Made by a program: the position numbers and the translations under genes
Notes under the pieces: model-generated
The model's input: the letters and a program-made list of their open reading frames with translations, nothing else
The model's database searches: none
Told to the model about the DNA's origin: nothing
Virus record (IMG/VR): IMGVR_UViG_3300027822_000011
Source of the DNA: a virus
Length of the DNA: 64,000 bases
Reading direction: 5' to 3' (one strand)
Part shown: one piece after another, positions 36,625 through 58,616 of the stretch
How the letters are laid out: the number at the start of each line of letters is the position of its first letter
How positions within the stretch are numbered: the first letter of the stretch is position 1

Positions 36625-37029
36625 TTATTTACTCCATCTTAAAGAAACAAGAAATTTCTTGAAAGATACAAAATCAAGCAATAATTCTTTTTGATAGAAT
36701 TCTATATGTTCAACTTTTATTGAACTGAAGTGAATTACTGGGGCAGTAATTATATGCATACCTGGAACCGGCTTTATTTTAATCAATCCGGAGGATAACT
36801 TAAACAGACCGTAATAATTAAAAGAAAGGATACTGCCATATTCAAAACCTTTTCCAATAAATCCAGCAAATGGGGTTTTATGGAGTTTTCCAACTCTCAA
36901 CGGCACCGGTTCTGATTTAATTTTAAAATTACCATTTTCATACATGGGTATCAAAATATTGTTTTCAAATTCAGTTAAATATCCTTTCCATTTTTCAATC
37001 ATTCTTTCTTTCTCCATTTTGCCACCCAT
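36625..37029 (-). CDS. Hypothetical protein
   Basis: 134-aa ORF. Confidence 0.5.
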   Translation of the reverse strand: MGGKMEKERMIEKWKGYLTEFENNILIPMYENGNFKIKSEPVPLRVGKLHKTPFAGFIGKGFEYGSILSFNYYGLFKLSSGLIKIKPVPGMHIITAPVIHFSSIKVEHIEFYQKELLLDFVSFKKFLVSLRWSK

Positions 37030-38054
37030 TCATTTAAAGTAATGATAGTATTATCCTTTATTAATAGGCGCTGTCTTATATAATTTGGATCATGTAAAAT
37101 TTTAGTGACCCAATCATTTAAAATTTCAGGACGACCCTTGGTTACTTCCCGGAGATTAATCAATGCCTTATATCCTCCAAACAAATAATGCGCCACAAAC
37201 CGATTCCATATAGTTCCATCATACGTTGAATGGTAATCACGTCTTTCCCCATGGTGGTGCAAAACAGTTCCTGGGTGGATGAATTTTGAGTGCCCGGTAA
37301 CTGATAAAGCATAATTCATAAAATTTTCACCACCGCCATATGCTCCAAATGAAGTAGGCCAACCACCAACCCTTTCATATACCTGTCTTGAAATCATCAT
37401 GCCACAAGTACTCATACAAGATACTTCAAATAACTGGACTTTTTTATCAGGCATACTGGTAAAAGAATATCCATAAAAATTATTCTCAACAACCATTTTA
37501 TATATCAATTTGCGCCATTCTAAAATTTTATAAGTCAATGGCATATGGAAAGTCCCAATTGATTCGTATCCATTAATGTAATCTGAATACATTTCAGGTA
37601 TCCCGGCATCAGGAACACAATGGGCATCAATGAATAAAAAAGTATCTGCCTTTGCTGCAATACAAGCCAACCTTTTACATTCCCAATGACTAAGCTGTTC
37701 GTTATATTCCATATAACGCAACCAAGGATTTCCCCCGGCTGACGCTTTTATGGCATCTCCTGCTTTATCCTGGTGAAAACTTGGGGCCAGTTTACTGGCA
37801 ATTTCATTAATATCACTTACCATTAACTCCCCATTTTGCTTTGCAGCTTTTTCACTTAAATCTCTGGCAACATTATATTGAGCAAACTGCCATTGAGTAG
37901 TTAATTCTGGGCACATATTATTCACAGCAATTATTTCAAAATTAAGCTTGCCCAACAGAGTTGAAGCAATCGACTGAATTGTAAACAAAGCCTGGGGATA
38001 TTCTCCCGCAAATGGGATGATAATTGATAAATCAGGTTTCATATGTGCCTCCAT
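36999..38054 (-). CDS. Glycosyltransferase, GT-A fold (GT2-like)
   Basis: LSIIIPF, FLFIDAH (DxH), VGGW...YGGGE. Confidence 0.8.
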   Translation of the reverse strand: MEAHMKPDLSIIIPFAGEYPQALFTIQSIASTLLGKLNFEIIAVNNMCPELTTQWQFAQYNVARDLSEKAAKQNGELMVSDINEIASKLAPSFHQDKAGDAIKASAGGNPWLRYMEYNEQLSHWECKRLACIAAKADTFLFIDAHCVPDAGIPEMYSDYINGYESIGTFHMPLTYKILEWRKLIYKMVVENNFYGYSFTSMPDKKVQLFEVSCMSTCGMMISRQVYERVGGWPTSFGAYGGGENFMNYALSVTGHSKFIHPGTVLHHHGERRDYHSTYDGTIWNRFVAHYLFGGYKALINLREVTKGRPEILNDWVTKILHDPNYIRQRLLIKDNTIITLNEWVAKWRKKE

Positions 38055-38620
38055 CTTTTTTTATTTATTATTTTTCCAATTAAAGGTTGTTTAACTCCAA
38101 ACATTTCAGCAAGAATAGTTTGAGTATATTGTCCTACTGAATATAACTTTCTAATTGTTTTTACTTTATCAGCATTTAATTTAGCAGCAGGATTCAATTC
38201 TCCCTTTGGTAATGGATTTAATCCAGTATCAAAAGCATGTTTAATATTTTCAGAATAAGTGGCCCATTCTAAATTAGTCCACCAATTATTACTTTTATCA
38301 CCATCTTTGTGATGTGGGATATGATCAGGAGAAGGCCTTCGTTCCCCAAAATAATTAATAACTAATTGGTGAACTCCTATTCTTTTACATACCCCATTTC
38401 TAACCAAACCTACTTTTATGTAACCATGATCTCTTTTTCTTGGAAAAATTTTCATAAATACTTCCTGTAAAAGCATAGTTGTTTTTCTATGGGGTACTAA
38501 TCTTTCTAATGATTTTACTTTACCCAAATTAGAAATAGCATAATTTGGGTATTCTTTAATTACTTTCCAGATTTCAAAATTTCTTTTTATACTTAAATCT
38601 GGTTTGATAGTGTTACTCAT
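38039..38620 (-). CDS. NUMOD4-HNH homing endonuclease
   Basis: EIWKVIKEYPNYAISNLGKVKS; HHKDGDKSNNWWTNLEWAT.SEN. Confidence 0.9.
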   Translation of the reverse strand: MSNTIKPDLSIKRNFEIWKVIKEYPNYAISNLGKVKSLERLVPHRKTTMLLQEVFMKIFPRKRDHGYIKVGLVRNGVCKRIGVHQLVINYFGERRPSPDHIPHHKDGDKSNNWWTNLEWATYSENIKHAFDTGLNPLPKGELNPAAKLNADKVKTIRKLYSVGQYTQTILAEMFGVKQPLIGKIINKKRWRHI

Positions 38621-39365
38621 TTATTTTCTCCCATTCAGTAAAAAAAGCTTTAATACCCTTTTTTTGGTATCCGTTGTCTGTCATCCATTTTCTGCCAATA
38701 TCCTGAATAATTGGTGGACATGGTCCCTTTGGTTGAAATACACCAAAATTAGATTTCAAAATTTGTATGTAATTTCCTTTAATTTGTTTTTCAGGATTTG
38801 AGTCTGGTCTTAAAATAGCTGCAAAATACAAAAGAAAAGAAGTTTTATTTAAAGATGGGTGCCCAGCCCATCCAATAGTTCCCCGTAAATTTTCAGGAAT
38901 TTCAAAAAATGCACCATTCCATTTTATATGCTTATTCCATACTTTCATGGTTGACTCACCAGTACTTTTAAAAGATGATAGACGCAAATGAACAAGGTCA
39001 TTATCTTGTTTAAATAAATCAATCATATTAGAAAAACTAAGTGGTTTTACCATTTCCCAATCTTCTTCCAAATTAAAAGTATAAGGTGATGAAAGCTGCC
39101 CCAGACACCTACAAAAGGCTTTTGAAAAACTGGGCGTTTGTGATACCGATATATTTTTAATATAAAATGGAATCGTTTCAAGATAATTCAAAATTTCATG
39201 AAAAGTCTTATCTGGTGTTTTTGAACCGACCATATCAATATTCATTATTAATTTAGCATTGGTAATAGCATCACCAAACAAATTTTTTATGAATGAATCA
39301 AAAGTCCTTTTTATCAAATCCGGTCGCAAAGTTGCCGTCATCATAATATCAAATTTATCATTCAT
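38613..39365 (-). CDS. Glycosyltransferase, GT-A fold
   Basis: IMMTATLRPDLIKRTFDSF, FNLEEDW (ExD metal motif), HPSL. Confidence 0.7.
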   Translation of the reverse strand: MNDKFDIMMTATLRPDLIKRTFDSFIKNLFGDAITNAKLIMNIDMVGSKTPDKTFHEILNYLETIPFYIKNISVSQTPSFSKAFCRCLGQLSSPYTFNLEEDWEMVKPLSFSNMIDLFKQDNDLVHLRLSSFKSTGESTMKVWNKHIKWNGAFFEIPENLRGTIGWAGHPSLNKTSFLLYFAAILRPDSNPEKQIKGNYIQILKSNFGVFQPKGPCPPIIQDIGRKWMTDNGYQKKGIKAFFTEWEKINE

Positions 39366-40074
39366 GTAAACCCATCCTTTGAAAGCAAATTACATTTTTA
39401 TAATATGATGATAATTCTTTTTTAGTCCGGCCAAATGAACCAAGATTAGTTTTCCATCTATTCTCATACTCTTTCATATTAGAAAAACCTTTTTCTTTAA
39501 AAAGGTTAATCCAAAATTGACGCGGGGCACAATTCACATGACCATGCCCTTTTTGGCCGGGGGCAGCTGCAGATATCAGAATATTATCACTTAACAGAAT
39601 CAAATTATCTACATAAATTTTAGCATATTCTATTTCAATATGTTCAGCCACTTCAAGGCTAAAAGCAAGATCATATTTACTTTCACATGATCCCATATTT
39701 AGAGTATACCGTAAATCCCATATTGAAACTTGATCAGTTACCATGAATTCTTCTGCCGCCTGAGAACCCTCAATGCCCCACGCAACATACCCAGAATCAT
39801 TAAACCATTTTACATAATCACCAATTGCGCATCCAACATCAACAATAGTATTGCCTTTATATTGCAATAAATCATAAGTCTTGGCTAATGCTTCACAAAC
39901 ATACGGAGCCCGCCAGGAAAGACTTTTTCGATTCTTAAAAAATCCCCCTTTATACGTCCCACTTACTGAATTTAATATTTTATGCCGCAAAGTTGTTCCA
40001 GCTTTTGACCCCTTTATCCCGGCCAGTACTATATCATTTTTACCTTTGAGCAAATTATCATTTGTAATATTCAT
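39358..40074 (-). CDS. Class I SAM-dependent methyltransferase
   Basis: IVDVGCAIG, GIEGS, YDLAFSLEVAEHI, GQKGHGHVN. Confidence 0.85.
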   Translation of the reverse strand: MNITNDNLLKGKNDIVLAGIKGSKAGTTLRHKILNSVSGTYKGGFFKNRKSLSWRAPYVCEALAKTYDLLQYKGNTIVDVGCAIGDYVKWFNDSGYVAWGIEGSQAAEEFMVTDQVSIWDLRYTLNMGSCESKYDLAFSLEVAEHIEIEYAKIYVDNLILLSDNILISAAAPGQKGHGHVNCAPRQFWINLFKEKGFSNMKEYENRWKTNLGSFGRTKKELSSYYKNVICFQRMGLHE

Positions 40075-40082
40075 TTTGGATT

Positions 40083-40541
40083 TTATTCCTTCCGTTCACT
40101 GGTTGAGTCATCAAAAGATATCATTTTTTCTTTATGATAATCACATATTTCAATCATTTCTCCGGCAGGAGAAACCACGCACCCGCATTCCCTGGTATGA
40201 TTTGATTCTTCAGGAATAGCTTTTGAAAGGTTTTCATTTTCAAAACCTTCCTTTTCCTGCCGCATGATATTTTTAATTTTGTCAGGAGTCAGTTTCCAAT
40301 CTGGGGCAGGTATTGATAAATCAGCCTGTGGGCCACATGGATAAGTTCGTCCGGCAGAATCAAATGAAGCAACCCTGCTCCTTTTTTCAATTGCAATCAT
40401 ATCCAAGCATGCTATTACCTCAAGAAAATCTGAATCATCAATTAAAATCCGTAATATTTCATCAATTGAGGCGTTTTTGAAATCTTTATTTTCTTTCAAA
40501 TCTTGCATTAATTTATTTCTCATGATATCTCCTTTTACCAT
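40083..40541 (-). CDS. Hypothetical protein
   Basis: 152-aa ORF with C-terminal CGC...CDYH. Confidence 0.5.
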   Translation of the reverse strand: MVKGDIMRNKLMQDLKENKDFKNASIDEILRILIDDSDFLEVIACLDMIAIEKRSRVASFDSAGRTYPCGPQADLSIPAPDWKLTPDKIKNIMRQEKEGFENENLSKAIPEESNHTRECGCVVSPAGEMIEICDYHKEKMISFDDSTSERKE

Positions 40542-41661
40542 ATGATTTAAACGAATCCATCAATTTTACTTTACTTTCAATATTTGGTGGATTCCCTTTT
40601 AACATTTTAAAAAATTTGGTTAATTGTGGAATAACTACTGAATCATATCCCATTCTACGTTGGTATATTTTAGCCCTGGCTTTTTTTTCTTTTAAATCAA
40701 AACGCCGCAAAATATCAAAAAGATGATCAGCCCATTGCTCATAACTTTGCCCTGGATTAAAGACAAAAGTTGAAATATAGTCATGCACCAATAATGGGGT
40801 GAACCTGGGTGTATTTGATAATACAACTGGAATCCCACAAGCGTGAGCCTCTAGGATACTTCTATCATTTTGACCACCCGTTCCCAAATGCATAAAAATT
40901 TTACATTCAGAAAATAAATATGATAAAGTTGATTTTTTTAAAATCCCTGGCATAACCACTTCATTTTTTACAAAATTCGTTTTTAACATTTCAAGAGTTT
41001 GAGTTGATCTTCTGGTCCCTCCTGGCATTACAGTTTTTGGATAAAAGCCATATTTATTTTTAAAAGTTTCTATGACTTTAACTGTTTGCCATTGTCCTTT
41101 TTTATCATGAATATTTGATGCCCCAATACAGATATCAAATATAATAGGATTATTTTGAGGATGAAAGATATTTTCATTGGTTGGTTTTACGAAAGGAAAA
41201 TGATACCTACCATGTCTATCAATTTCATTAGTCATTCCTAAATCATCAAAAACAATATCCCACCATGTCCATTTATCCCGGCCAGTATTTGCTGCATAGC
41301 AAATCAACCAATTTTTTCCTTTATATTGCAAAAGGAAATCATGCCAATGACGAAAACCTCCTCTAACAAAAATGATAGTATCATCGTCAATATATTCTTT
41401 TACCAAATTGATTTCAGGAATTACAAAGTTTTTAGCCCCTTTCACAAAATTGGCATAACCTGGGTTAACTCCAGATTCAAAAAATACTTTCATATCAGTT
41501 ATTGTTTTATTATCAATCAAAGATTGAAACATTTGAAAATAACATTCATCACCATGAATTTTTTGATAATGATCACCAGCCGGTTTCTGTTTCCAGGTCT
41601 CCCCAACAATTGACCCTGCCGGGGCTGACCCACTACTCATAAATAAAAATAAAACTTTCAA
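40513..41661 (-). CDS. Glycosyltransferase, GT-B fold (GT4-like)
   Basis: KKGQ, GGQNDRSILEAHACGIPVV. Confidence 0.8.
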   Translation of the reverse strand: MKVLFLFMSSGSAPAGSIVGETWKQKPAGDHYQKIHGDECYFQMFQSLIDNKTITDMKVFFESGVNPGYANFVKGAKNFVIPEINLVKEYIDDDTIIFVRGGFRHWHDFLLQYKGKNWLICYAANTGRDKWTWWDIVFDDLGMTNEIDRHGRYHFPFVKPTNENIFHPQNNPIIFDICIGASNIHDKKGQWQTVKVIETFKNKYGFYPKTVMPGGTRRSTQTLEMLKTNFVKNEVVMPGILKKSTLSYLFSECKIFMHLGTGGQNDRSILEAHACGIPVVLSNTPRFTPLLVHDYISTFVFNPGQSYEQWADHLFDILRRFDLKEKKARAKIYQRRMGYDSVVIPQLTKFFKMLKGNPPNIESKVKLMDSFKSYGKRRYHEK

Positions 41662-41683
41662 AACAAACCTTTTTGTTTTTCCA

Positions 41684-42985
41684 TTAACCCATTACCGGAA
41701 GATAATATCTGGTATAAATTGAATCCATATTATACTTCATTCTGCAATATGTTTTTGTCATTATGGCTTCATTTGAATAAAGCCGATTTAAAATTGCCAT
41801 TGCCACCGCTTCAATATATCCCGGATCATCCAAAGCATCCACTTTTTGTGAAAAGGATCCAAAATCAAAAGATGGTGGATGAATTGACATCACCTCTTGC
41901 ATCATATGAAGTGACCTATTTGTAACCACCATTGCTCCAGAAAAAGCAGCTTCCGGGCCAACTAAACCAAAAGATTCTTCCCGGGTTGGGAAAACAAAAA
42001 GATTTGAAATCAATTGTAATTCACGGATAATCTTTCTTGATATCCCAATGGCATATTCTTCTTTTAATTCTGACGTGAAAATAAAATCACGTTCATATAT
42101 CAAACCAATTGTTTCTGCATGATCAATATACTTTTGAATATCTTCCTTTCTTTGGCGCCCAGTAGCCCATTGATTTGCAATTACCAAAAAGACTGGAACC
42201 TTGGTCTTGATTTTCATGATAGCAAAAAGTTCAATCACTATTCCCAATTGCTTTGCTTCTAATCTATCGGTTGAACAAGGATAAACTTGAACAATCTCTG
42301 AATCCATAATTCTTGTATACCTATCAAGAATTTCATTGGTCTCATCACTGAAATCGTACCAATTTCTTATATCTTTTATATGGGGTATGATTTTCACCCG
42401 GGCAGATGGAATTTTAAAAGATTCGGCAACTCTCATAATTTCCGTTTTATTTGGGAAAACCACTGAATGATTAAACCCCAATTTGTCAAGACTCCACCAG
42501 TCTCTATTTCCTGAAGGAACTGAATGGACCCAATGAAACCACCCGGTAGGAATTTGAGCAGATCGAAGTTTATTATTTGTATCAATGATGGCATGAAAAT
42601 ATGGAAGATTCCATCCAGTAAAAATAAAGTCATGTGTAAGGACAATGGTGACACCATGTTCAAGGAAAGAATGAAAGAAGATATCACCTGCCTCGGCAGA
42701 TAATTCTTTATGATCGTCATTCATATCATCCAACACATAATCTTTCAAATGCATGAATCTTGTTTTTCTTTCAATGATAAGCTGATCACCATATTTACTA
42801 GCAAGATCTACCAAACCGGCAGCTTCATCAAATTTATTATTATATGATTCATTCACATAAATGATTACCTTGTGATTATTTTTAAGCAACATTTGTGCCT
42901 GATCAACCACAATTCCAGTAAGAGAATAACCCGGGTTAAATTCTGCAAAATTGGTCAGGATTGCCACTGTTTTTTTATTTGACAT
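41684..42985 (-). CDS. Glycosyltransferase, GT-B fold (GT4-like)
   Basis: LTHDFI, HWVHS, LFVFPTREESFGLVGPEAA (EX7E). Confidence 0.85.
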   Translation of the reverse strand: MSNKKTVAILTNFAEFNPGYSLTGIVVDQAQMLLKNNHKVIIYVNESYNNKFDEAAGLVDLASKYGDQLIIERKTRFMHLKDYVLDDMNDDHKELSAEAGDIFFHSFLEHGVTIVLTHDFIFTGWNLPYFHAIIDTNNKLRSAQIPTGWFHWVHSVPSGNRDWWSLDKLGFNHSVVFPNKTEIMRVAESFKIPSARVKIIPHIKDIRNWYDFSDETNEILDRYTRIMDSEIVQVYPCSTDRLEAKQLGIVIELFAIMKIKTKVPVFLVIANQWATGRQRKEDIQKYIDHAETIGLIYERDFIFTSELKEEYAIGISRKIIRELQLISNLFVFPTREESFGLVGPEAAFSGAMVVTNRSLHMMQEVMSIHPPSFDFGSFSQKVDALDDPGYIEAVAMAILNRLYSNEAIMTKTYCRMKYNMDSIYTRYYLPVMG

Positions 42986-43056
42986 TTGAATACCTTTCTG
43001 TTTTTGATAAACATTGGTTTTTGGGACACCCCTAAAGATGCCCCAGATTTTAATAA

Positions 43057-43227
43057 TTAAACATTTTCTAAATTTTTTGGATCATTCAACAAGAACTTTT
43101 CTTTGGTATCCCAGTATAAACGATCCATTTCGTTTTTATTCATTCCTTGCTGTTTAGCATAAGTAAAATAACCGGTTAAAAGAATTTTAGCCATTTCTGT
43201 AATCACTATTGCTTTTGTATCAGACAT
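43057..43227 (-). CDS. Small protein in the lysis module
   Basis: Hand translation MSDTKAIVITEMAKILLTGYFTYAKQQG... (56 aa). Confidence 0.5.
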   Translation of the reverse strand: MSDTKAIVITEMAKILLTGYFTYAKQQGMNKNEMDRLYWDTKEKFLLNDPKNLENV

Positions 43228-43247
43228 CACGCCCCTTTCTTATAAAA

Positions 43248-43622: not shown

Positions 43623-43649
43623 TCATTCCTCCTTTAAAAAGTTTAAAAT

Positions 43650-43934: not shown

Positions 43935-43991
43935 AACCTTTTCCTTTTATTTTATATCATTATAAAAATATAATAATCATTGACATTATTT

Positions 43992-44483
43992 TTAAGCTGT
44001 AGTGGTAGTAGTTGATGTCGTCGTTGAAGTTGTACTTGGTAATGAACCAATATCATATGAACCATTTAAAATTAGGGTAGTTGCGCTATGTGCCATGCCC
44101 ATTATCTGAGTTGTTCCACTTGGACTTTGAGTCAATTCTCCTGCAATACTTGCACTTAAAAATACTGGGGAACCCGGAATAAAAGTCCAAGCTGCATTTG
44201 TAATAGGTCCCACTCTTTGAATATTAATTTCATCATCCAAAATTCCAGTTACCAAAGTCAATCCTAATGCAGGTTGTAATTTTCCACCTGACTTAGCTAA
44301 TTTATACTTGGTTTCCCCTTTAAAAATTCCAACAGCTTTATATTGACCAACTGTTTCACCAAGAATAGCTTGTAAATTAGTATGAATTACAGAATCTAAT
44401 TGGGCCATGTCTGAATTCATAATTGTATCCCAGCCCTGAACTGAATATTCAATATTATGCAAGCTGTATTTAGAAGTTGTCAT
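43992..44483 (-). CDS. Virion fiber/cement-like protein with a Thr/Ser tail
   Basis: ALGL, WTFIPGSPVFLS..AGELTQSP..QIMGMA.SAT; C-terminus STTSTTTSTTTTTA. Confidence 0.55.
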   Translation of the reverse strand: MTTSKYSLHNIEYSVQGWDTIMNSDMAQLDSVIHTNLQAILGETVGQYKAVGIFKGETKYKLAKSGGKLQPALGLTLVTGILDDEINIQRVGPITNAAWTFIPGSPVFLSASIAGELTQSPSGTTQIMGMAHSATTLILNGSYDIGSLPSTTSTTTSTTTTTA

Positions 44484-44496
44484 TTTTCCTCCAAAA

Positions 44497-45885
44497 TTAA
44501 AGTGATAGTTTTGTAATTAATGAAGTTGAAACAGATCTATAAGTGGTTCCGTCTTCTTCAATAAAATTAGTTATTTTAAATTCAATGGAAGTTGCTAATG
44601 CTCCATTATCAGAAATATTTGCCGCTGAAGAATAAGTCCAGGTTAAGGCATTAATATCGGTTTCAGTTCTTACCAAAACAGAACTTACCCAAACTTCCAC
44701 AGTAAAATATCCCTCATGATCACTATTTGCTAAAATAGTTCCTGGTACTCCAATACCTGCCCCAGTTCCTCTTTTTCTGGCACTCCAAGTTAAAATAATA
44801 TCTGCAGAATATCTTGAAGCAAAAGATGCCCCATTACCACAAAAATTTACTACCCTGTAAGGAGTTTTAGCAACCCCTGAGATAACCAATGGAAAAGCAA
44901 TTGAATCTGAAATACTCCCTTTTAACTGATTATTAAAGGGAACCAATTTAAAATATCTGGTGGCCCCGGCTATAATTTCAGTATCGTCAACTTGCCCTAT
45001 AAATTGATTAATAAAAAAAGCTCCGGTTCCAATTGGGTGAACAGCTTGACTCGTCCCATATCTCCCACGAATAACCCCTTCTAATAAATAAATGGTTCCA
45101 GAAACAGGCGTAATTGATGTGAATGAAATTATTTCATCTTCGATTGATAACAGATTATTTTGACCACTAAGAGTATTAGACCACGCAATAGTATCAATCA
45201 AAGAAACATCAGTTGTTGAAAAATTTATCAAAATGCCATTAGTATCATCAATTGGAAAAGTTAAAGGATATTCTTCGGTTAATTCTCCATATGGTTGGAT
45301 ATTAGCAAAAGTATCTATTAAATTATATGAACTGTCATCATAACTAATATAAAGTTCAAACCCAAGATCAACCGGGGTCATTCTGGCAGCTACTGGTATT
45401 ACTTGAATTCCAGTTCCTGATAAAGCATAAGGGGCCTCAGCAACTTTTACATAATCAAATCCTTCTGGGGTATAATCGGTTGGTTGCACTGAATGATCAA
45501 CAATAGTTGAAATAAAAGTAGTTGTTGATTTGGCAACTCCAAATATATCTTCCATACAATTTATTGTGATTTTTTCAGATTCCATTGAACTTTCTTCGAT
45601 AAATAAAATCCGTAAAATCATTTCAACTATTCCATATTTAGCAAATGAAAATTTAAAAGTATCACCAACTTGTAATCTAAATAAATTTCTATTCACTACC
45701 AAAGATAAAATAGCAAAAGGATATGATTCTTTTTGTAATTGTTGTTTAGCAGCCCATACTGCATTTGAGTTTCTGGTGAATAATCCAAGCTGAATTGTTT
45801 TTGAAACTATCCTATTTTGAATAGCTCTATTTCCTGGATCACGGGCAGGTGGATCTGCCATAGATTTTTTAAAATCAAGTGCCAT
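44497..45885 (-). CDS. Tail tip/host-specificity protein, C-terminal part
   Basis: ARDPGN, LQVGDTFKF, LEGVIRGRYGT, YFKLVPFN, ILTWSAR. Confidence 0.7.
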   Translation of the reverse strand: MALDFKKSMADPPARDPGNRAIQNRIVSKTIQLGLFTRNSNAVWAAKQQLQKESYPFAILSLVVNRNLFRLQVGDTFKFSFAKYGIVEMILRILFIEESSMESEKITINCMEDIFGVAKSTTTFISTIVDHSVQPTDYTPEGFDYVKVAEAPYALSGTGIQVIPVAARMTPVDLGFELYISYDDSSYNLIDTFANIQPYGELTEEYPLTFPIDDTNGILINFSTTDVSLIDTIAWSNTLSGQNNLLSIEDEIISFTSITPVSGTIYLLEGVIRGRYGTSQAVHPIGTGAFFINQFIGQVDDTEIIAGATRYFKLVPFNNQLKGSISDSIAFPLVISGVAKTPYRVVNFCGNGASFASRYSADIILTWSARKRGTGAGIGVPGTILANSDHEGYFTVEVWVSSVLVRTETDINALTWTYSSAANISDNGALATSIEFKITNFIEEDGTTYRSVSTSLITKLSL

Positions 45886-45904
45886 TTTATTCTCCCCCTT
45901 TTAT

Positions 45905-48058
45905 TTATTTCCACGCATACAAATTATTTGTAGCACCAAATAATTTTATCCACTCTCCATCATCATAAGGAGTCCATTCTGCCACATTTCCACCCCAATA
46001 ACCTAAAGCTCCACCTGTTCTATTAATGAGCCCACCAGCAGTTAAATTAAAACCCCCCATTGCATGGGTTTCAATATCAGTATAATCACTTCCTGCTATT
46101 TTTACTGGGTCAATATGAAACAATTGACCATCATCTAAACCCAATTTATTATATGACCCATGACCAGCAACATAAATATCTCCATCAGTAGTCAAAATAT
46201 GAATACCTTCTTGACTTGAAGTACCAGTTAATTGAATTTTTTTTACTTTTAATCCAGATACTAATGATTGTTCAAATTCATTTGGTCTAAAACTCGAATA
46301 TCCTAAACCTAACTGACCATATGAATTTGCTCCACATCCATATAAATTATCCTCAATATCAATAGCACTTGCCATTGAATAAAAGTTTTTTGGAGTAGTT
46401 ACATATTTCCAGGAAATTGACTCTGGAACTAATTGGAGATCCAGATATGAAACATTATTACCCAAACCTAAATTACCAAAACCACCATAACCACAATCAT
46501 ACATTTGATGAGAAGTATTTATAAAATATGAAGTATATACCCCAGCATGAATATATTCCCAGTCTGAATTAATTCCAATCATAGTTAAATCTTGTAAATT
46601 TGTTCCATAATTATCTCGTGGCAAACCTAAACCTAATTGACCGTGAGAATTCCAACCACATGAAAAAATAAAACCTGATTGTGAAAGTAATAAAGTGTGA
46701 TTATTCATGCAAGATACTTGCTTCCAAGGGCCTTCGTCTAATAAAGTAAGTTCTAATAATTCAACATTTTCAGCAATACCTGGCATGACTTTTGATGCAT
46801 TTTTACCAATTCCATATAGTTGGCCAGTTTCAGTAACAAACATTGCTCCATCATTAAAACAAGCTACACTAATTACATCACCAATAATAATTCTTGTTAA
46901 TTCATCAATTGCAATATCTATTGGAAGCCCAATACATCTATACCCATTCTGACCGGCCCCATAAAAACCAGTTAATAAATTAATTAATTCAGAATATTGA
47001 ACTTTTATTTCATTAAGGGTATCAATCCACGCTTTTCTTGAAAAAACAGGAGTTTCTAAAAGGGTATTTTCATCAACCAATAATAAATCATCAACAACAT
47101 AATCATCCCGAATTAATTTAGTATAAAATTTTCCATCAGATCCATACCGCAAAATATTATCAATATGACTATTTATTGATTGAATATAAGTCATAGCATT
47201 TGTCTGATCTTTTAATAAAACAGATATCCCCCTATTTTCACTTAATAAAGTATTAGCCACCTGACTAAAAGAACTTTCATTTAAATAACTTTCTGGTAAT
47301 CCAGTCAAATTATTTAAAATATACCACAAAGCATGGGCTGGGTTATAATCATATAATTTGATAATATTATTGGAATTAAATGATAAAACAGGAGTTTTTT
47401 GTACCATAATTGTCATGGTTGGCATTCGAGGATAATTACCAATATAGCAATCATTAAAAACGGCCCAACAATAATTCCTATATGGAGTATTTAAAGTTTC
47501 ATCATCCATCAATCCACCAAGAGTTGTATTTGGTATTTGATCATCAGTTCCAAAATAAAAAGTACATGACCCCATATCAAGTAAAGTAACTGTTTCTTGT
47601 CCACCTGAAACAGGACATTCCAAATATCCTTCCCAAACCACATTGTCATTTTTAAAAATGGTGTAAAGAATATCAACTGGTCCTTTTACAAAACCTAAGG
47701 CCCAAGTAGCGTAATATTTATATCCAGACAATTGAGAACTTGAAGATGGTGAGCCCCCTTTTCCCCCTGAACTTGTTTCAGAATATTGCGCCTCTGATCT
47801 TTCATTTAAATATATCAAAAGATGCCCAGTTATTTTACCAATACCAAGTAAATCTGGACAAGGGTCACCAATAGTACTGATTGTCACGCTTTTTTCTGGA
47901 TTTGGTAACCCTGGGGTTGGGACATCTGCAGTAATTGGGTCAATCATCACCCCAACACCAAGACCTAACCCAGCCCCATAAACTGCCCCCATTGGGCCAC
48001 CAAGGAAAAATCCTATTGTCCCACCTATTGCCCCACCGAGGAATCCACCTAATGACAT
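45905..48058 (-). CDS. Tail tip protein, N-terminal part, fused to an RCC1-like beta-propeller
   Basis: Gly-rich N-terminus, DQIPN, PYRNYCWAVF, YNPAHALWYIL; then repeated G.N.(Y/H)GQLGLG motifs. Confidence 0.75.
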   Translation of the reverse strand: MSLGGFLGGAIGGTIGFFLGGPMGAVYGAGLGLGVGVMIDPITADVPTPGLPNPEKSVTISTIGDPCPDLLGIGKITGHLLIYLNERSEAQYSETSSGGKGGSPSSSSQLSGYKYYATWALGFVKGPVDILYTIFKNDNVVWEGYLECPVSGGQETVTLLDMGSCTFYFGTDDQIPNTTLGGLMDDETLNTPYRNYCWAVFNDCYIGNYPRMPTMTIMVQKTPVLSFNSNNIIKLYDYNPAHALWYILNNLTGLPESYLNESSFSQVANTLLSENRGISVLLKDQTNAMTYIQSINSHIDNILRYGSDGKFYTKLIRDDYVVDDLLLVDENTLLETPVFSRKAWIDTLNEIKVQYSELINLLTGFYGAGQNGYRCIGLPIDIAIDELTRIIIGDVISVACFNDGAMFVTETGQLYGIGKNASKVMPGIAENVELLELTLLDEGPWKQVSCMNNHTLLLSQSGFIFSCGWNSHGQLGLGLPRDNYGTNLQDLTMIGINSDWEYIHAGVYTSYFINTSHQMYDCGYGGFGNLGLGNNVSYLDLQLVPESISWKYVTTPKNFYSMASAIDIEDNLYGCGANSYGQLGLGYSSFRPNEFEQSLVSGLKVKKIQLTGTSSQEGIHILTTDGDIYVAGHGSYNKLGLDDGQLFHIDPVKIAGSDYTDIETHAMGGFNLTAGGLINRTGGALGYWGGNVAEWTPYDDGEWIKLFGATNNLYAWK

Positions 48059-48060
48059 GA

Positions 48061-49338: not shown

Positions 49339-49344
49339 AATTTA

Positions 49345-49590: not shown

Positions 49591-49606
49591 CTCCTTATTA
49601 AATTTA

Positions 49607-50923
49607 TTAAACTGTGGTAGTTGTAGTTGTCACAAAATAATCAGTTACTCTTGGAGATATTCCAACTTCTAAAGATAATCTGGTATTTGCTGCAGAAGCA
49701 AATCCCCAATGTCTCCAACCTTCATCACAAATAACATAATAAGAAGTTGAATCAGGTGCTATTGAAAAATTAACATCTGGAGTAAGAGCAGTGGCTGAAT
49801 TTGCTGTTATCAATCGCATTTGACCAGCACCAGTTCCAGTTGTTATAATTACGACTTTATCAACAAATTCATTAACAGTCCAACTTTGCCCGGTATCATT
49901 TAAAGCAGTTGTTGATCCAGAAGTTGCCAAAGTCTCCTCTTGCTGAATTCCTATACAAACGGTATCTTCATATGAAGTATAATCGGCTACAGCTTCAAAA
50001 GGACTTTTTAAAAGAAAGTTGTCAAGAAACCCAATCAAACCAGTACCACCAGTTCCCCTTTTAACCATCAAAGGACTACCAATGTATAAATTAGATGGCC
50101 CTTGATTAATTGCCCCACTAAAATTATCTGGGTCTAAAAAAGCAGGATCAAATAATTCATAACATGCATTATATCCAGAAATATTAGCAGTACCTTGAGT
50201 TGTATAAATCTCAGAAGCTGTATAACATTGCAGTGCATTAAAATTCATCAAAATATATGGATCAGGAGCATATCCAACAATAGCACCGGCTTGAAAGGCT
50301 AAATAAATCTGATCAACTGTTATTGTATGGTTCACTCTATCCACTGCTGTTATTATTGATTTGTGTGATCTTCCGGTACATGATGAATTTTGAGTGTCCC
50401 AAATAGATACCATAGCACCAACAGTAAAATATTGAGCTTGCCCTTTTCCAAGCTGTAATACTTTAACCAATCCAGTTGTAACAGAAGCCCCTAATTTGGC
50501 TATTGCTTTATGGGCACATGATATTCTTGCCATAATAGTACCATAATAAGATGCAGCAACTTTTGTAATAAAAGATAAAAAATCTTTATTACCAGTCATC
50601 CAAAAATAAAACGGACTTTCAGATGTAATAATAAAATTATATGAATCACCTCCAATTTTGATTAATCCTGCATGAGTGCTGTTATTCCAAAAATAATACC
50701 GGTGAAGTTGAATTTTATTTGCAACAGTTAAATTTAATTTTAAATAATTTCTCCAATAACAAGGCTTATCACTTTCACCATCTGAATAATAAACAACATA
50801 ATTACTTCCTGATAATTGATCATCATGAAGAGTCCATCCCATTGCTACTAATTCAGTTTCTATTAAAGCAATACAAGCTGCCCTATCAGCAACTGCTAAA
50901 GCTACAATTCTTCGCATTGTCAT
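49607..50923 (-). CDS. Tail-associated protein with a Thr-rich C-terminus
   Basis: GTGAGQMRLITAN...PDSTSYYVI; ends VTTTTTTV; position in the tail module. Confidence 0.55.
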   Translation of the reverse strand: MTMRRIVALAVADRAACIALIETELVAMGWTLHDDQLSGSNYVVYYSDGESDKPCYWRNYLKLNLTVANKIQLHRYYFWNNSTHAGLIKIGGDSYNFIITSESPFYFWMTGNKDFLSFITKVAASYYGTIMARISCAHKAIAKLGASVTTGLVKVLQLGKGQAQYFTVGAMVSIWDTQNSSCTGRSHKSIITAVDRVNHTITVDQIYLAFQAGAIVGYAPDPYILMNFNALQCYTASEIYTTQGTANISGYNACYELFDPAFLDPDNFSGAINQGPSNLYIGSPLMVKRGTGGTGLIGFLDNFLLKSPFEAVADYTSYEDTVCIGIQQEETLATSGSTTALNDTGQSWTVNEFVDKVVIITTGTGAGQMRLITANSATALTPDVNFSIAPDSTSYYVICDEGWRHWGFASAANTRLSLEVGISPRVTDYFVTTTTTTV

Positions 50924-50940
50924 GTCTTTTTCTCCTTTTA

Positions 50941-52581
50941 TTAATTTTCATTAAATCCTATTATGTGCGCTGGTTTAAAATATGAAGTAACTCCAGAACT
51001 TACGTCTTCTCCTTGTTGAAATGAGAGAGTAGTTGAAGTTGTTCCTGTTTGAGTAGTAGTGGTCGTTGAAGTAGAACTCGTAGTCGTTGTTGACAAAATT
51101 GGTGGATTTGTCATGGTCGTTGAACTTGTACTTGAAGTAGAACTCGTACTCGTAGTCGAAAAAGTTGATGTAGTCGAAAAAGTTGATGTTGTGGTTGATG
51201 AAGATGAAGTTGAAGTACTCGTGCTCGTTGAAGTAGTTGAATTTGTTGAAGATGTTGTAGTCGAACTCGAAGTAGTCGTGGTCGTTGAAGTAGTAGTAGT
51301 CCCCCCAAAAACAGTAGTTGATGTAGTTGATGAAGAAGTCGTTGAAGTAGTCGTGGTCGTTGAAGTAGTGGTAGTTGTCATTATTGGTTGTTCAGAATAG
51401 GAAGATTTAAAAGTTAAATCAATATCAACTTTTGAATCTGTTAGATATTTTAATTCTATTTCATCTTGATTAAATTGACAAAATGAACAAAAACAGACCA
51501 ATAATCCACCATTGATATCTTCCTGAGTAATATCATAAGCCAGACCATTTGTTAAGCGCAAGGTATCAGCATCCTGCGCAAGTTTGACCCCTACTACCTG
51601 ATAATCCCCATTTGGCCAAATAATGATAATGTAATCACCAAGGGGAGTTCCTTCATAATAAGTCCCATATTCAATATTTTCAATTGGCAATAAAGTATCC
51701 GAACTGCTTGCCGGTAAATTCACCTTAATATCAACCAACCAAGATGGTCTCCAGAAAGAACCAAATCTACCCTTATGATAATCAAAGAATTCAATTATAC
51801 TTTGAATAGCATCTTTATCAACTCCATAATATGATGCCTTTTCTTTTATATCATTATTCTCCCATTCATCCCAAAAAGTACTTTTTCCTAAATAGGCTAA
51901 TAATTCACTTTGGTGCATTTGATCTTCTTGGACCTGAGTTGACCAATCCGGCAAAATATTAAAAATAGGATAATCTTTGTAAACTGGCCAAGCTGAAATC
52001 GAAGGACTATATCTTGTAATTTCATCAAATTCTTCGGATGCTTCAATATTAATATCAGCCAAAATATTTGTGGAATATACACTACTTTGAACAATTTGAA
52101 TCCTTGCTTTTAGGATAGGATAAACACATATTCCACTTTCCCAAGTTGATACCAAATTATCAACAACGGTTATTTGATTTGCTGAAATAGTAGCAATTGT
52201 GGCAATTTCAAATTCATTTTGATTTTTATAAATAACGCATTTTGCCCCTACTTCAAAATTTCTATTTGCCGTTTCAGTAATTAATAATATTTTTTGGCCT
52301 AACAAAACTTCATCTAATAAAGTTGCTGAATCTTGCCAATACGGAATACCCCATACTTTTTGTAAATTTTTATTAATCTTTCGTTTTACATAAGATGTTT
52401 GGCCATAAGTTCCGGTTTCTATCTTAAATGATAAAACCCTGCGAGGCCAAGTAAAAATTGCTGATTTCTTTGGACTATTATTAATTGATGTTTGAAAAGT
52501 TGTCTTCCACTTCTTTTTAAAAGATATCCCCCTTTGCCAATTTGGTTCAATTAAAAAATAATCATCAACTGAAGTAGTCAT
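50941..52581 (-). CDS. Distal tail-like protein with a roughly 105-residue Thr/Ser tract
   Basis: FLIEPNW, WPRRVL, FFDYHKGRFGSFWRPSW; follows the tape measure. Confidence 0.65.
   Translation of the reverse strand: MTTSVDDYFLIEPNWQRGISFKKKWKTTFQTSINNSPKKSAIFTWPRRVLSFKIETGTYGQTSYVKRKINKNLQKVWGIPYWQDSATLLDEVLLGQKILLITETANRNFEVGAKCVIYKNQNEFEIATIATISANQITVVDNLVSTWESGICVYPILKARIQIVQSSVYSTNILADINIEASEEFDEITRYSPSISAWPVYKDYPIFNILPDWSTQVQEDQMHQSELLAYLGKSTFWDEWENNDIKEKASYYGVDKDAIQSIIEFFDYHKGRFGSFWRPSWLVDIKVNLPASSSDTLLPIENIEYGTYYEGTPLGDYIIIIWPNGDYQVVGVKLAQDADTLRLTNGLAYDITQEDINGGLLVCFCSFCQFNQDEIELKYLTDSKVDIDLTFKSSYSEQPIMTTTTTSTTTTTSTTSSSTTSTTVFGGTTTTSTTTTTSSSTTTSSTNSTTSTSTSTSTSSSSTTTSTFSTTSTFSTTSTSSTSSTSSTTMTNPPILSTTTTSSTSTTTTTQTGTTSTTLSFQQGEDVSSGVTSYFKPAHIIGFNEN
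51048..51380 (-). repeat. Low-complexity tract encoding poly-Thr/Ser
   Basis: gtagtcgt/gttgaagt iterations on the + strand. Confidence 0.9.
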
Positions 52582-52583
52582 AT

Positions 52584-55391: not shown

Positions 55392-55393
55392 TT

Positions 55394-55600
55394 TTATCTC
55401 CTTTTCATAAATCTGCTCCACGCCCTATCATCTGCAAACCTGGCTATTCTCATTGAACTGGCAAAATCTTTTTGGGTTTCATTATTAATTAATTGATGTT
55501 CATTCAGGGCTAAAACAAAAAAACTATATCCATAAGATAAAACATCAGTATGACCTGCTTCTATAAGATGGCAAGAATCTTTGAAAAGTTGTTTATATGC
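55394..55600 (-). CDS. Tail assembly chaperone, downstream (T-like) frame
   Basis: Overlaps the end of the upstream ORF in the -1 frame: HLIEAGH...YGYSFF; directly before the tape measure. Confidence 0.55.
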   Translation of the reverse strand, partial: AYKQLFKDSCHLIEAGHTDVLSYGYSFFVLALNEHQLINNETQKDFASSMRIARFADDRAWSRFMKRR

Positions 55601-56007
55601 TTCTCCAACATTTTGCTGAATAGCTTTATTATTTTCAACTTTTCTAATACGTCTAAAAAATCTTGGTTCACCTCCCGAAACTTGTCCCACAAAAGTTTAA
55701 TTTCTGACGGAGCCAGATTATTATCAATTAAATCCTGCAATTTAAAATCACAAGTCTTTTTCATGACTTCACTAATTTCGTCAGAATATTCTTTTAATTC
55801 ATCCAAAAAACCTTTTTGCCTTTTTTGAATAACTGGTTCCTGGCCGTTTTGTGATTTCTCAATTGGTGTGGTTGGGGCTTCTTCAGATTTAAAAAATTGA
55901 TTATTTTGACTTAATTCAATAATATCTTTAATAGTCAATTCTTTTATAGTATAATTTATAGTTTCCCCGCCATCAAGATCTATGTTAACGGTTCCTGATT
56001 TTCTCAT
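55561..56007 (-). CDS. Tail assembly chaperone (G-like)
   Basis: Between tail tube and tape measure; IKELTIKDI, LAPSEIKLLW..F.EVN..F. Confidence 0.65.
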   Translation of the reverse strand: MRKSGTVNIDLDGGETINYTIKELTIKDIIELSQNNQFFKSEEAPTTPIEKSQNGQEPVIQKRQKGFLDELKEYSDEISEVMKKTCDFKLQDLIDNNLAPSEIKLLWDKFREVNQDFLDVLEKLKIIKLFSKMLEKHINNFSKILAIL

Positions 56008-56017
56008 AATTCGGCCT

Positions 56018-56614
56018 TTACGTAGTAGTTGTGGTTGTAGTTGAAGTGGTAGTGGTGGTTTTAATCTTATAATCAAAATAAGGTGACGCAGGAAAATGCG
56101 CTGTATCAGCAAGTCCTTCGGCACGATAAGTCATTGAAAGATATTCATTACCAATCAATTGAAATGGGCCATTTGGTTTGATTTTTGTCCGTCTGAAATA
56201 TCCCTCAGATTGTGGACCAATGGGGTTATTTGAAACAAAGATAATGGCATACTCTTTGTCATATCCCTGCATACCTGAAATAGTCCGTGAAGTTGCATCC
56301 AAGGTGCCCAATAAAAACATATTTAAATTGGCAGCTGCAATCTCATCCAGATTAAAATTGCAAGCATAGTCAAGGGAAGTAACAGGGTCAAGATCTTTTA
56401 AATTTACCCCTTCCCTGCTTGAATGATGGGGCCTTGATTCGGTCGCCGGCTCAATATCAAAAGCAGTGGCATTCCCGACATCAACAAAATCCCCTAAATT
56501 TCCAGCCGTATAAGCGGTGGGGTAAGTTGGGGGAGTCGTGCCTGTCCATTCCCCTACATATAAGATTCCCCTACCTGACGGGACATATAAACCAGTATTA
56601 TGTGGAGTTGTCAT
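56018..56614 (-). CDS. Major tail tube protein with a poly-Thr C-terminus
   Basis: GRGILY, DVGNATAFDI, LDEI...NL.MFLLG; ends KTTTTTSTTTTTTT. Confidence 0.8.
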   Translation of the reverse strand: MTTPHNTGLYVPSGRGILYVGEWTGTTPPTYPTAYTAGNLGDFVDVGNATAFDIEPATESRPHHSSREGVNLKDLDPVTSLDYACNFNLDEIAAANLNMFLLGTLDATSRTISGMQGYDKEYAIIFVSNNPIGPQSEGYFRRTKIKPNGPFQLIGNEYLSMTYRAEGLADTAHFPASPYFDYKIKTTTTTSTTTTTTT

Positions 56615-57064
56615 CTAAATTCCTCCTGTATCATGAATATATTTGTGAATTGCCGTCATTTGAAAAGCCACAAAAGGATTCCAAATGTTTACTTTTTCTT
56701 TAATTTTAATGGTAGTTTCATATACCAGTTTTCCCCGACTTTCATCAGTATAAAGCTGTTTGAAAAGATCATCAGCTACACTTGAAATCAAAGAATCTGC
56801 ATCTTCATTTACTTGCAAATATACAAAAATATCCACTTTGATTTCAGACCTGATTTGGTCAACTGCTACTCCCCTTTGACTAAATTTTTCATTAGGAACT
56901 GGCATTCTACCAACAACTGCGCAAACAGGGAACTGCGTTTGAGCATAACAAGTTAACTCTGCATATTCTGGCAAAGTTCTAATCGGTGATTTAATACTTG
57001 GTACGGCTTGAACCAAATTAAAATCACTAATAATTATTTGCTCTCTCTTACTATTTGCGGCCAT
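56615..57064 (-). CDS. Tail terminator-like protein
   Basis: SKREQII, QFPVCAV, LYTDESRG; position before the tail tube. Confidence 0.6.
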   Translation of the reverse strand: MAANSKREQIIISDFNLVQAVPSIKSPIRTLPEYAELTCYAQTQFPVCAVVGRMPVPNEKFSQRGVAVDQIRSEIKVDIFVYLQVNEDADSLISSVADDLFKQLYTDESRGKLVYETTIKIKEKVNIWNPFVAFQMTAIHKYIHDTGGI

Positions 57065-57068
57065 TATA

Positions 57069-57539
57069 TTATCCTCTGGTTAATTTATCATAATAATCAT
57101 TCACAATGTCCTTAATTCCTTTTATATCATCCTGGGACAACTCAAAAAACTCCCGATCCTGATGAAGGAAAAATGCTTTTGCCGGGTTTCGTTCTTTGTT
57201 TTTATACCCCGGTGCTTCTGGACCTTGTGTATTCATAAAAAAGATATCAACAGAATCCCTATTTGTATCATAAGTCATGGCTGAAAGCATTGACCCTGTT
57301 CTGGTCAAATCTACCGGCTTAACAGGAAAATCCCTTTTACCTCTTTCCACTGCATATCCTTTTGAATAAGGAGTGAAGTCAAGGCCATGCACATCCTCCC
57401 CTTTAAGAGTTCTGCGTTTGATTCTGGTCATGGCATACATCCCAATATCACCCAGCATCATATCACGGAATGGAGCATCACGGAGGGCCGTTATCTTTCG
57501 AGTCAAGCCCTTTAATCCGGTTAATTCAATAGTACTCAT
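57069..57539 (-). CDS. Tail completion/virion morphogenesis protein
   Basis: RIKRRT..G.DV.G..FTPYS..Y, VDLTRTGSML, REFFELS. Confidence 0.7.
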   Translation of the reverse strand: MSTIELTGLKGLTRKITALRDAPFRDMMLGDIGMYAMTRIKRRTLKGEDVHGLDFTPYSKGYAVERGKRDFPVKPVDLTRTGSMLSAMTYDTNRDSVDIFFMNTQGPEAPGYKNKERNPAKAFFLHQDREFFELSQDDIKGIKDIVNDYYDKLTRG

Positions 57540-57540
57540 T

Positions 57541-57981
57541 TTAAGCCCTCAACAATCGCCTGGGTGCCCGTATGGCAATTTCATCAGTATCAACTATTCC
57601 TGAATCATCCCAATCATACCCAAGACCCATGCCTATAACTGCGTCAAATTCATTGCCAAACATACCGGCAAACAAAGACATATTTCTTTCAAAGCCATCA
57701 ATCTCAGGACAATCTTTCATGAGAAGCATATACGCAAATTCTAAAGTCTTGAATGCTTCAAGTCTTGTCAAATCCCCATCTTTTACCTTAATTGGATCAA
57801 AAAGGGTCAAGGTAGGGTCAATGCCCTGGATAGGGGCTACTTGGTTATACCATCGAGCCACAAGCATTCTGTTGATAATATCAAATGCTTCCAGCCTTTG
57901 AGTTTCCCAATCATCCACTCCCAAAGACAAAATATTGCTTCTGTATTTTAATAAATCTGCGTCCACACAATAAGTAGCCAT
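57541..57981 (-). CDS. Head-tail adaptor-like protein
   Basis: MATYC..ADL, YDWDDSG; position after the capsid genes. Confidence 0.6.
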   Translation of the reverse strand: MATYCVDADLLKYRSNILSLGVDDWETQRLEAFDIINRMLVARWYNQVAPIQGIDPTLTLFDPIKVKDGDLTRLEAFKTLEFAYMLLMKDCPEIDGFERNMSLFAGMFGNEFDAVIGMGLGYDWDDSGIVDTDEIAIRAPRRLLRA

Positions 57982-57993
57982 AGCTACCCCCTT

Positions 57994-58347
57994 TTATTGA
58001 AGTGATGGCCCCTTTTGGATAACGGGAACTCTTACCCCTGTTTCCTGATTGAATCCTGCAGGGCCAACTTTAATATCAGTCATAGCCCCCTCATCCATAT
58101 CAGTCACCAAGGATTTACCAGGAATACGTACCAATACGTTCGGTGGCTCTGTGGCATCAACTGGGATTTGTGGATACCCTTTTTTAAGTAAAAACTGGGC
58201 TACCTTAATATCATCAGTTGTAAATGATCCACCATCAAAATCAGCCAATTTTCTATCACGATTGGGATCCCAAACAATTTTGGGTAAATTCGATTTATAA
58301 AATCGATACCGTTGTTTGCCTTTAACTTTTGGATTATTCCGTTTCAT
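57994..58347 (-). CDS. Hypothetical structural-module protein
   Basis: 117-aa ORF after the capsid. Confidence 0.55.
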   Translation of the reverse strand: MKRNNPKVKGKQRYRFYKSNLPKIVWDPNRDRKLADFDGGSFTTDDIKVAQFLLKKGYPQIPVDATEPPNVLVRIPGKSLVTDMDEGAMTDIKVGPAGFNQETGVRVPVIQKGPSLQ

Positions 58348-58385
58348 ACTATTCTGCCTTTCTTATGAATATTATTGCCAAATCA

Positions 58386-58616
58386 TCAAGCAGTAGTTGT
58401 GGTTGTACTTGATGAAGTTGAAGTAGTCGTGGAACTGGAAGTTGAAGTAGTAGAAGTTGTCGTGGTCGTGGTCGTGGTCGTGGTCGTTGACCAAACTCCT
58501 GATACTTGCAAATGCCGATTTAAAGCAGCAAAATACTTCCTTTCTTCCGGGTAACGGGCTGGGCTCGTTTCCATGAACCGCCTTTCCCTTTTATAATCCT
58601 CATTACTCATGGTCAT
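58386..58616 (-). CDS. Small protein with a Thr/Ser tail of about 30 residues
   Basis: Ends STTTTTTTTTTSTTSTSSSTTTSTSSSTTTTTA; AAAGGGAG RBS. Confidence 0.65.
   Translation of the reverse strand: MTMSNEDYKRERRFMETSPARYPEERKYFAALNRHLQVSGVWSTTTTTTTTTTTSTTSTSSSTTTSTSSSTTTTTA

Follow-up and report, generated by a model that had tools for sequence, protein, structure and literature searches.

Glycosylation of virion proteins by phage-encoded enzymes was described in mycobacteriophages, in a study that reportedly found few indications of it among phages at large. Che8, Corndog and Myrna glycosylate the C-termini of their capsid and tail-tube proteins with their own glycosyltransferases (GTs), which, as cited in the two articles that relay this work, is the only phage virion glycosylation shown experimentally (Freeman 2023, via PMC12619734, PMC13445384). 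Here we describe a locus of comparable design in virus record IMGVR_UViG_3300027822_000011. The 64,000-nucleotide stretch analysed (the window) encodes five virion-module proteins with mucin-like runs of Thr and Ser at or near their C-termini, and next to them lies a block of glycosyltransferase genes (36625-42985). As in the mycobacteriophages the GTs are encoded by the phage (four of them here), the C-termini in question belong to virion surface proteins including the tail tube, and modification would presumably take place in the cytoplasm, before or during assembly. We propose that the tails are probably O-glycosylated by the phage’s own enzymes, a reading that we draw from gene content, comparative genomics and predicted structures. 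The window comes from a marine metagenome and is part of a 77,303 bp contig of a tailed phage with a GC content of about 33%; the genes of the region all lie on the minus strand.

Ser/Thr runs of at least five residues are found in exactly five minus-strand open reading frames (ORFs) of the window, all of them in the virion module; they are the same five, and no others, that the initial annotation had named. The first belongs to a small protein of 76 residues encoded immediately behind the major capsid gene (58386-58616). Its conserved N-terminal part of about 42 residues is followed by residues 43-75, 33 residues that are all Ser or Thr, and by a terminal Ala; it has no match in Pfam or PHROG and is a candidate capsid-bound acceptor protein. 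The major tail tube (56018-56614; phrog_807 at 6.7e-19) carries a C-terminal tail of 13 such residues, one of them Ser (residues 186-198). In the distal-tail-like protein (50941-52581; phrog_1082 at 5.8e-55) the mucin-like tract spans residues 402-518, that is 117 residues of which 87% are Ser or Thr, and an ordinary C-terminus of 28 residues follows. A protein of 438 residues from the tail-tip region (49607-50923) ends in TTTTTTV, a run of six, and the product of the last gene of the tail module (43992-44483; 163 residues, phrog_4368, function unknown) ends in 13 Ser/Thr residues and an Ala. The tract thus forms the very C-terminus in four of the five proteins, followed by at most one Ala or Val, and lies near the C-terminus in the fifth. 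For the tail tube the tract has 13 residues and not 14 as given in the initial annotation, which had put the tracts of the distal-tail-like protein and the small protein at about 105 and about 30 residues.

Ser and Thr together make up 12% of residues, so that 20,699 residues would be expected to hold 0.46 runs of at least five and 2e-8 runs of at least 13. Shuffling within proteins gave an expectation of 0.11 proteins with a C-terminal tract against the four observed. Since the expected run counts are far below those observed, chance does not account for the tracts. Their carriers are confined to the virion part of the window (43992-64000), with 5 of its 25 ORFs against 0 of the 63 elsewhere (Fisher p = 0.0014). 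The codons within the tracts are mixed (ACT, ACA, ACC and ACG for Thr, TCA and AGT for Ser) and therefore suggest selection at the protein level, not simple DNA repeats. Slippage-prone DNA repeats were considered separately as an origin of the tracts and rejected, given the mixed codons and the retention of the tracts over deep divergence.

The tails are widely retained in relatives of this phage. Related loci were recovered with alignments as queries, a single protein query (the product of the first GT gene of the block, GTB1) having given none, and the clade comprises at least 118 viral contigs that encode the tail tube. Of 80 homologues of the tail tube in a protein collection, with identities as low as 35%, 79 carry a terminal Ser/Thr tail with a median length of 14 residues, and the sole untailed homologue is a fragment of 125 residues. 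This persistence, together with the mixed codons, indicates that the tails are under selection at the amino-acid level. Across 80 related IMG/VR loci tails occupy three syntenic places, namely the small post-capsid ORF, the tail tube and the distal-tail position. In 48 of 68 related loci the gene that directly follows the capsid gene is a small tailed ORF with a conserved N-terminal part of about 40 residues, and a tailed ORF is found at the distal-tail position in 22 of 36. The two remaining proteins also have tailed counterparts: the homologue of the 438-residue protein in relative G002 (37% identity) ends in TTTTTV, and the 163-residue protein has a weak local match in G007 (45% over 53 residues), where a 287-residue ORF carries a tail of 20 residues. 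Several relatives encode further fibre-like proteins with tails or internal Thr linkers, and the stretch of relative G004 that was read contains five tailed virion-side ORFs besides the three syntenic ones.

In G004, a 95-kb relative (30605-52616 and 40590-60000/L084), we counted about 15 separate Thr-tract loci in the virion module; internal Thr linkers join domains of its fibre-like proteins, and five ORFs of this stretch have tails of 14-16 residues, the longer ones ending in TT..TSS. Most tails, both in the tail-tube homologues and in the related loci, are closed by one or two small non-polar residues (Ala, Val or Ala-Pro). These terminal residues after the Thr run may be part of a recognition signal or may protect the C-terminus.

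In three relatives (L027, L055 and L060, all fragmentary contigs) the small post-capsid protein and the tail tube both end in poly-Ser where poly-Thr would be expected, and across 46 genomes the Ser fractions of these two tails are correlated (rho 0.48, p 6e-4). A joint switch of two tails from Thr to Ser is the outcome expected if both are read by a shared factor. The three switched relatives may reflect only one or two evolutionary events.

The initial annotation had described two GT-B genes, two GT-A genes and one S-adenosylmethionine (SAM)-dependent methyltransferase gene downstream of the structural genes, and Pfam matches and predicted folds bear this out. A search of the GTs against NCBIfam returned nothing specific. 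The first enzyme, GTB1 (41684-42985), is a GT4-type, retaining GT-B glycosyltransferase (Glycos_transf_1 in Pfam). Its predicted structure (AF2 pLDDT 91) shows a GT-B fold with two Rossmann domains and is nearest to GT4 structures: the closest are BshA, MshA, TarM, PimA and a Rickettsia GT (Z 15-17.6 over 320-348 residues), and SdgB is among the neighbours (Z 14), yet stands lower in the ranking than generic members of GT4 such as BshA and MshA. In the E-x7-E motif of the C-terminal domain the columns of E337 and E345 are invariant in 32 homologues, and the GTB1 family counts 710 proteins. We regard GTB1 as a candidate initiating protein O-glycosyltransferase. Its placement in GT4 is one reason to favour O-glycosylation of the tails, since this is the family of SdgB, which attaches O-linked N-acetylglucosamine to Ser-Asp repeat proteins.

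The second reason is provided by the enzyme encoded at 36999-38054, a GT-A glycosyltransferase of 351 residues (GTA in the following) that is GT2/GT27-like and has a DxH motif, a GGxx..YGGGEN motif and a downstream His. When profiles built from 6 and 33 homologues were compared with all Protein Data Bank sequences, only polypeptide N-acetylgalactosaminyltransferases (ppGalNAc-Ts) scored below E 1e-3. The best match was T10 (E 2.6e-5 and 5.8e-5), with T4, T9 and others also found. Within the DxH motif the D and the H are invariant; they line up with the DSH of GalNAc-T10 and T4, and the His of T4 is matched by an HH at about residue 267. The segment GGWP..YGGGENF aligns to GGYDPGLEIWGGE in T10 and may correspond to the Gal/GalNAc-T motif ..GG..D....WGGEN.E.., within a total score of only 25-27 bits. 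GTA has no match to the Pfam Ricin model for the ricin-type lectin domain and no hydrophobic segment that could serve as a membrane anchor; lacking both, it is GT27-like and not a member of GT27. The resemblance nevertheless favours the proposed reading because the ppGalNAc-Ts, its nearest relatives of known structure, glycosylate Thr/Ser tracts of mucins.

Three further enzymes make up the set. The second GT-A (38613-39365) has no Pfam match and was recognised by its fold (AF2 pLDDT 76). Its Foldseek matches are SpsA, TarS, TarP, K4CP and GnT-I (TM 0.56-0.62, E about 1e-8 to 1e-7), and its E-x-D motif is invariant (E100, D102). The second GT-B, GTB2 (40513-41661), matches Glycos_transf_1 at 1.3e-8. 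The SAM-dependent methyltransferase (39358-40074) matches Methyltransf_23 with 28.8 bits against a Pfam cut-off of 27 and is a candidate sugar O-methyltransferase.

From these elements we envisage a phage-encoded system that would O-glycosylate virion proteins in the host cytoplasm. Poly-Thr(/Ser) tracts at or near the C-termini of surface-exposed proteins would serve as portable mucin-like acceptor tags, carried here by the small protein encoded next to the capsid gene, the tail tube, the distal tail protein and two proteins of the tail end. The first sugar would most likely be placed onto Thr hydroxyls by GTB1, a soluble GT4 enzyme conserved in the clade; GTA would be an alternative initiator or might add the second sugar. 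GTB2 and the second GT-A could then extend the chain, and the methyltransferase could modify a sugar and so perhaps cap the glycan, as the initial annotation had also supposed. Such a coat might shield the particle from proteases or from adsorption to particles, or might instead promote adhesion.

It could also be that the tails are glycosylated but that a host enzyme places the first sugar, with the phage GTs only extending or tailoring the chain. The part of the island downstream of GTB1 is highly variable, as one would expect of tailoring enzymes, and the acceptors of GTB1 and GTA are putative. On the other side GTB1 is conserved across phages of very different GC content and presumably of different hosts, and an enzyme of the GT27-like kind is itself a typical initiator. 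We know of no general host function of cytoplasmic O-glycosyltransferases that act on poly-Thr, and we hold initiation by the host to be very improbable.

In relatives the variable sugar-tailoring island downstream of GTB1 contains hexapeptide acyltransferases, extra methyltransferases, other GTs, a GT9-methyltransferase fusion, a sulfotransferase-like protein and a NAD epimerase/dehydratase. GTB1 itself occurs in 10 of the 12 long records of relatives, and for the complete ones (at least 90%) the count is 5 of 5. The two records without it are 37% and 58% complete fragments that are cut before or about at the expected position of the gene. GTA is found in 8 of the 12 records (4 of the 5 complete ones) and GTB2 in 3 of the 12. 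Searching with GTB1 led to 76 viral loci, of which 49 contain GTA, 42 GTB2, 42 the second GT-A and 39 the methyltransferase. The tracts and the enzymes also keep a constant polarity: ORFs with a Ser/Thr run of at least eight lie on the virion side (upstream) of GTB1 in 39 of 52 loci and downstream of it in 1 of 49. The initial annotation had suggested looking across phage genomes for co-occurrence of tails and GTs, and had held that tails equally common in relatives lacking GTs would speak against its reading. Co-occurrence was observed, and no relative with tails and without GTs was found. The nearest isolates by tail tube, Cylindrospermopsis phage Cr-LKS3 and Ruegeria phage V16, lack poly-Thr on the tail tube, and the annotation of the 32-40 kb examined of each lists no glycosyltransferase.

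G014, a complete phage of 82.6 kb with terminal repeats, has only the GT cluster in common with this clade, and there the cluster accompanies different virion proteins. It is complete and runs from GTB1 through GTB2, the methyltransferase and the GT-A to GTA, with two additional ORFs placed ahead of GTA. G014 has no detectable homologue of the tail tube of this clade and its capsid protein belongs to a different family (phrog_29), and yet poly-Thr plus Ala-Pro ends are found on the capsid protein, on a 229-residue protein and on a 214-residue protein in the tail-tube position. Tails on unrelated proteins next to a shared cluster indicate that the tags travel with the enzymes and not with the structural families. 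G014 had for a time been a candidate counter-example with GTs and without tails; this was rejected, the search patterns of eight Thr codons or eight WCN codons having missed its tails, which contain AGY Ser codons.

The genes of the window also bring to mind an explanation in which the tracts are unglycosylated flexible bristles or spacers, working against aggregation or in weak adhesion, and the GT island serves hypermodification of the phage DNA. According to the initial annotation the window carries a 7-deazaguanine DNA-modification cluster, and a thymidylate-synthase-like (ThyA-like) gene in two relatives could make hydroxymethyl pyrimidines. Phage GTs that glycosylate DNA are well known (PMC12619734). 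Against this, among the five complete relatives a ThyA-like gene is found in two and the TGT Pfam model in none, compared with GTB1 in all five, the GT island stands at the end of the virion block and not in the replication module, and tails and GTs occur jointly on the unrelated capsid and tail families of G014. To our knowledge, moreover, glycosylated deazaguanines have not been described. We consider this combination of spacers and DNA modification unlikely, although the tracts as such may be plain unglycosylated spacers. The ThyA-like matches lie at G001:52440-52700 and G002:41729-41998, the latter with three stop codons, and the content in DNA-modification genes seems to vary widely within the clade.

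TarP is prophage-encoded, and GT4 and GT2 enzymes commonly act on envelope glycopolymers. TarM, TarS and TarP are all among the structural neighbours of the enzymes described here, and the GTs might accordingly modify the host envelope (O-antigen, teichoic acid or capsule), for example to block superinfection, with the tails being unrelated to them. The Phage_integrase model, however, matches none of the five complete relatives, so no tyrosine integrase was found in them, and several of them have direct terminal repeats; the phages are therefore probably virulent, and seroconversion would be of little value to them. The GTs have no membrane segments, and no flippase-like, polymerase-like or GtrA/B-like gene was found in the window, where the only ORF with several hydrophobic segments (17246-17803) falls in what the initial annotation called a preQ0 cluster containing a yhhQ-like transporter. 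Action on the envelope would also leave the clade-wide tails, their polarity and the concerted Thr-to-Ser switch unexplained, and we judge it quite improbable. The initial annotation had itself named action of the GTs on DNA or on the host envelope as what would count against virion glycosylation; what we find is that the DNA-modification genes vary while the GT is constant and that neither membrane segments nor export genes accompany it. Neither of these two explanations accounts for the tails, for their position relative to the enzymes or for the switch.

Several points weigh against O-glycosylation of the tails. Similarity of fold and motif does not fix the acceptor of an enzyme, the match of GTA to GT27 is weak (E about 1e-5) and comes without the lectin domain, and Ser/Thr-rich tracts can be plain flexible spacers. 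Tails and GTs are both near-universal in the clade, and their co-occurrence therefore reflects mostly a few evolutionary events and not many independent ones. The phage is uncultured and known from one marine metagenome run. A prediction of the complex between GTB1 and the 76-residue tailed protein scored 0.00; made without controls, it is best taken as neutral. Taken together, the proposal of the initial annotation that the tails are acceptors for the neighbouring GTs is supported by comparative genomics and is probable.

A more far-reaching version can be put forward tentatively, namely that poly-Thr is a portable glyco-tag, read by a conserved cytoplasmic GT4 and/or ppGalNAc-T-like enzyme, that can be grafted onto any surface protein. 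Its targets would include the capsid, the decoration protein, the tail tube, the distal tail and fibres, and the fast-evolving tailoring island would diversify the glycan much as in O-antigens.

The surroundings of these genes are those of a tailed phage. In minus-strand order the virion block begins with an SU10-type capsid protein (58667-59692), and the small tailed protein is followed by head-tail connector genes, the tail tube, chaperones and the tape measure. Then comes a gene-transfer-agent-like tail tip, made up of the distal-tail-like protein, the 438-residue protein, a BR0599/hub protein, an NlpC/P60 peptidase and a split host-specificity protein, and the 163-residue protein and two small membrane or lipoprotein genes lead on to the GT block. 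The host-specificity protein (Rcc01698/phrog_1101; 44497-48058) is split into two ORFs, with an RCC1-type propeller (Pfam RCC1) at the end of the first. An ORF of 165 residues (60627-61124) that precedes the scaffold-like and capsid genes is kept in 19 related loci and has no Pfam match. The GT cluster closes the virion gene block ahead of a terminator-like GC-rich hairpin (36602-36621), identified by a consensus scan only, with a stem of eight pairs, five of them G-C, followed by a T-rich tail.

Within the GT block three ORFs are not glycosyltransferase or methyltransferase genes. Between the two GT-A genes lies an HNH/NUMOD4 homing endonuclease gene (38039-38620; HNH_3 at 5e-9, NUMOD4 at 8e-9), which the initial annotation did not mention and which overlaps each of its neighbours by a few codons. 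It has no homologue in any related locus, and the two GT-A genes abut in G001 and are adjacent or nearly so in relatives; it is an inserted mobile passenger outside the pathway. An ORF of 152 residues inside the cluster (40083-40541) matches no family, and its membership of the cluster is doubtful because no counterpart was found by tblastn in related loci. At the end of the island, directly behind GTA, an ORF of 134 residues (36625-37029) has no Pfam match and is conserved, with tblastn matches in 28 related loci; it may have an unrecognised part in the system, for example as a chaperone of the tags or an adaptor to them.

In this large and uncultured marine clade up to a dozen virion proteins carry mucin-like poly-Thr tags, next to an enzyme set with no detectable relation to that of the mycobacteriophages. 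Should the tags prove to be glycosylated, phages in the sea would have a surface chemistry well removed from the one now supposed, and this would affect how they adsorb to particles and mucus, how they decay and are grazed, and how hosts are recognised. Viruses of bacteria would then possess a counterpart of mucin-type O-glycosylation, and glycoengineering would gain a simple tag-plus-enzyme tool. Were the tag portable as speculated above, a large share of uncultured marine tailed phages would be glycoprotein-coated particles, and the tag with its enzyme could be a minimal, transferable tool that works in the bacterial cytoplasm.

How does the locus compare with systems already described? Our literature search found no description of poly-Thr phage tags with glycosyltransferases, or of GT27 in phages. 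The phage has no isolated relatives, megablast of the region against GenBank phages giving no match, and the nearest tail tubes of isolated phages, those of the Ruegeria and Cylindrospermopsis phages, share 31-36% identity over part of the protein. The mycobacteriophages differ in several respects. The Che8 sequences, which we checked, have no poly-Thr tract: the gp6 capsid protein ends in ..NKTGS and the gp11 tail tube in ..YSDGS. In the present phage five proteins bear tags, of 6-117 residues, and the capsid tag is on a separate small protein. GTB1 found no match by tblastn at E <=1e-3 among 50,697 phage records and GTA none at E <=1 in the Che8 genome; by these searches the enzymes have no detectable sequence relationship to Che8-type GTs. 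The host is not an actinobacterium, and whereas a glycan has been demonstrated in the mycobacteriophages, this marine, low-GC, uncultured phage is known from its genes. The Gtr-type seroconversion cassettes of temperate phages are likewise different: membrane-bound GtrA/GtrB/GtrC-like proteins were not found in the window, nor an integrase in the five complete relatives.

Capsids of chloroviruses and giant viruses are glycosylated by virus-encoded enzymes, and A064R of PBCV-1 has two GT domains and a methyltransferase domain. By description the likeness lies in the use of several virus-encoded GTs and a sugar methyltransferase, independent of host machinery; unlike this phage, however, those are viruses of eukaryotes, their glycans are N-linked at atypical sequons (PBCV-1) and they have no poly-Thr tags.

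Closer in the type of acceptor are the GtfA/GtfB and SdgA/SdgB systems for serine-rich repeat and SD-repeat proteins of Gram-positive bacteria, where a cytoplasmic GT4 enzyme initiates on low-complexity Ser-rich tracts and GT-A and GT-B enzymes extend the chain. In GTB1 Pfam detects only Glycos_transf_1 and no DUF1975-type acceptor-binding insertion, and the putative substrates are Thr-dominated tails of virion proteins instead of secreted adhesins. Mucin-type O-glycosylation (CAZy GT27) shares with the present locus the dense Thr/Ser tracts as putative acceptors, and the alignment of GTA with ppGalNAc-T10, T4 and T9 takes in the nucleotide-binding start at the N-terminus, the DxH, the Gal/GalNAc-T-like GGEN motif and the downstream His. 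GTA departs from GT27 in its length of 351 residues without ricin-type lectin domain or anchor and in its similarity at E about 1e-5, and it would act in the bacterial cytoplasm. By analogy, then, the design of the acceptors resembles that of mucins and serine-rich repeat adhesins, and the candidate initiating enzymes resemble GT27 and GT4 respectively.

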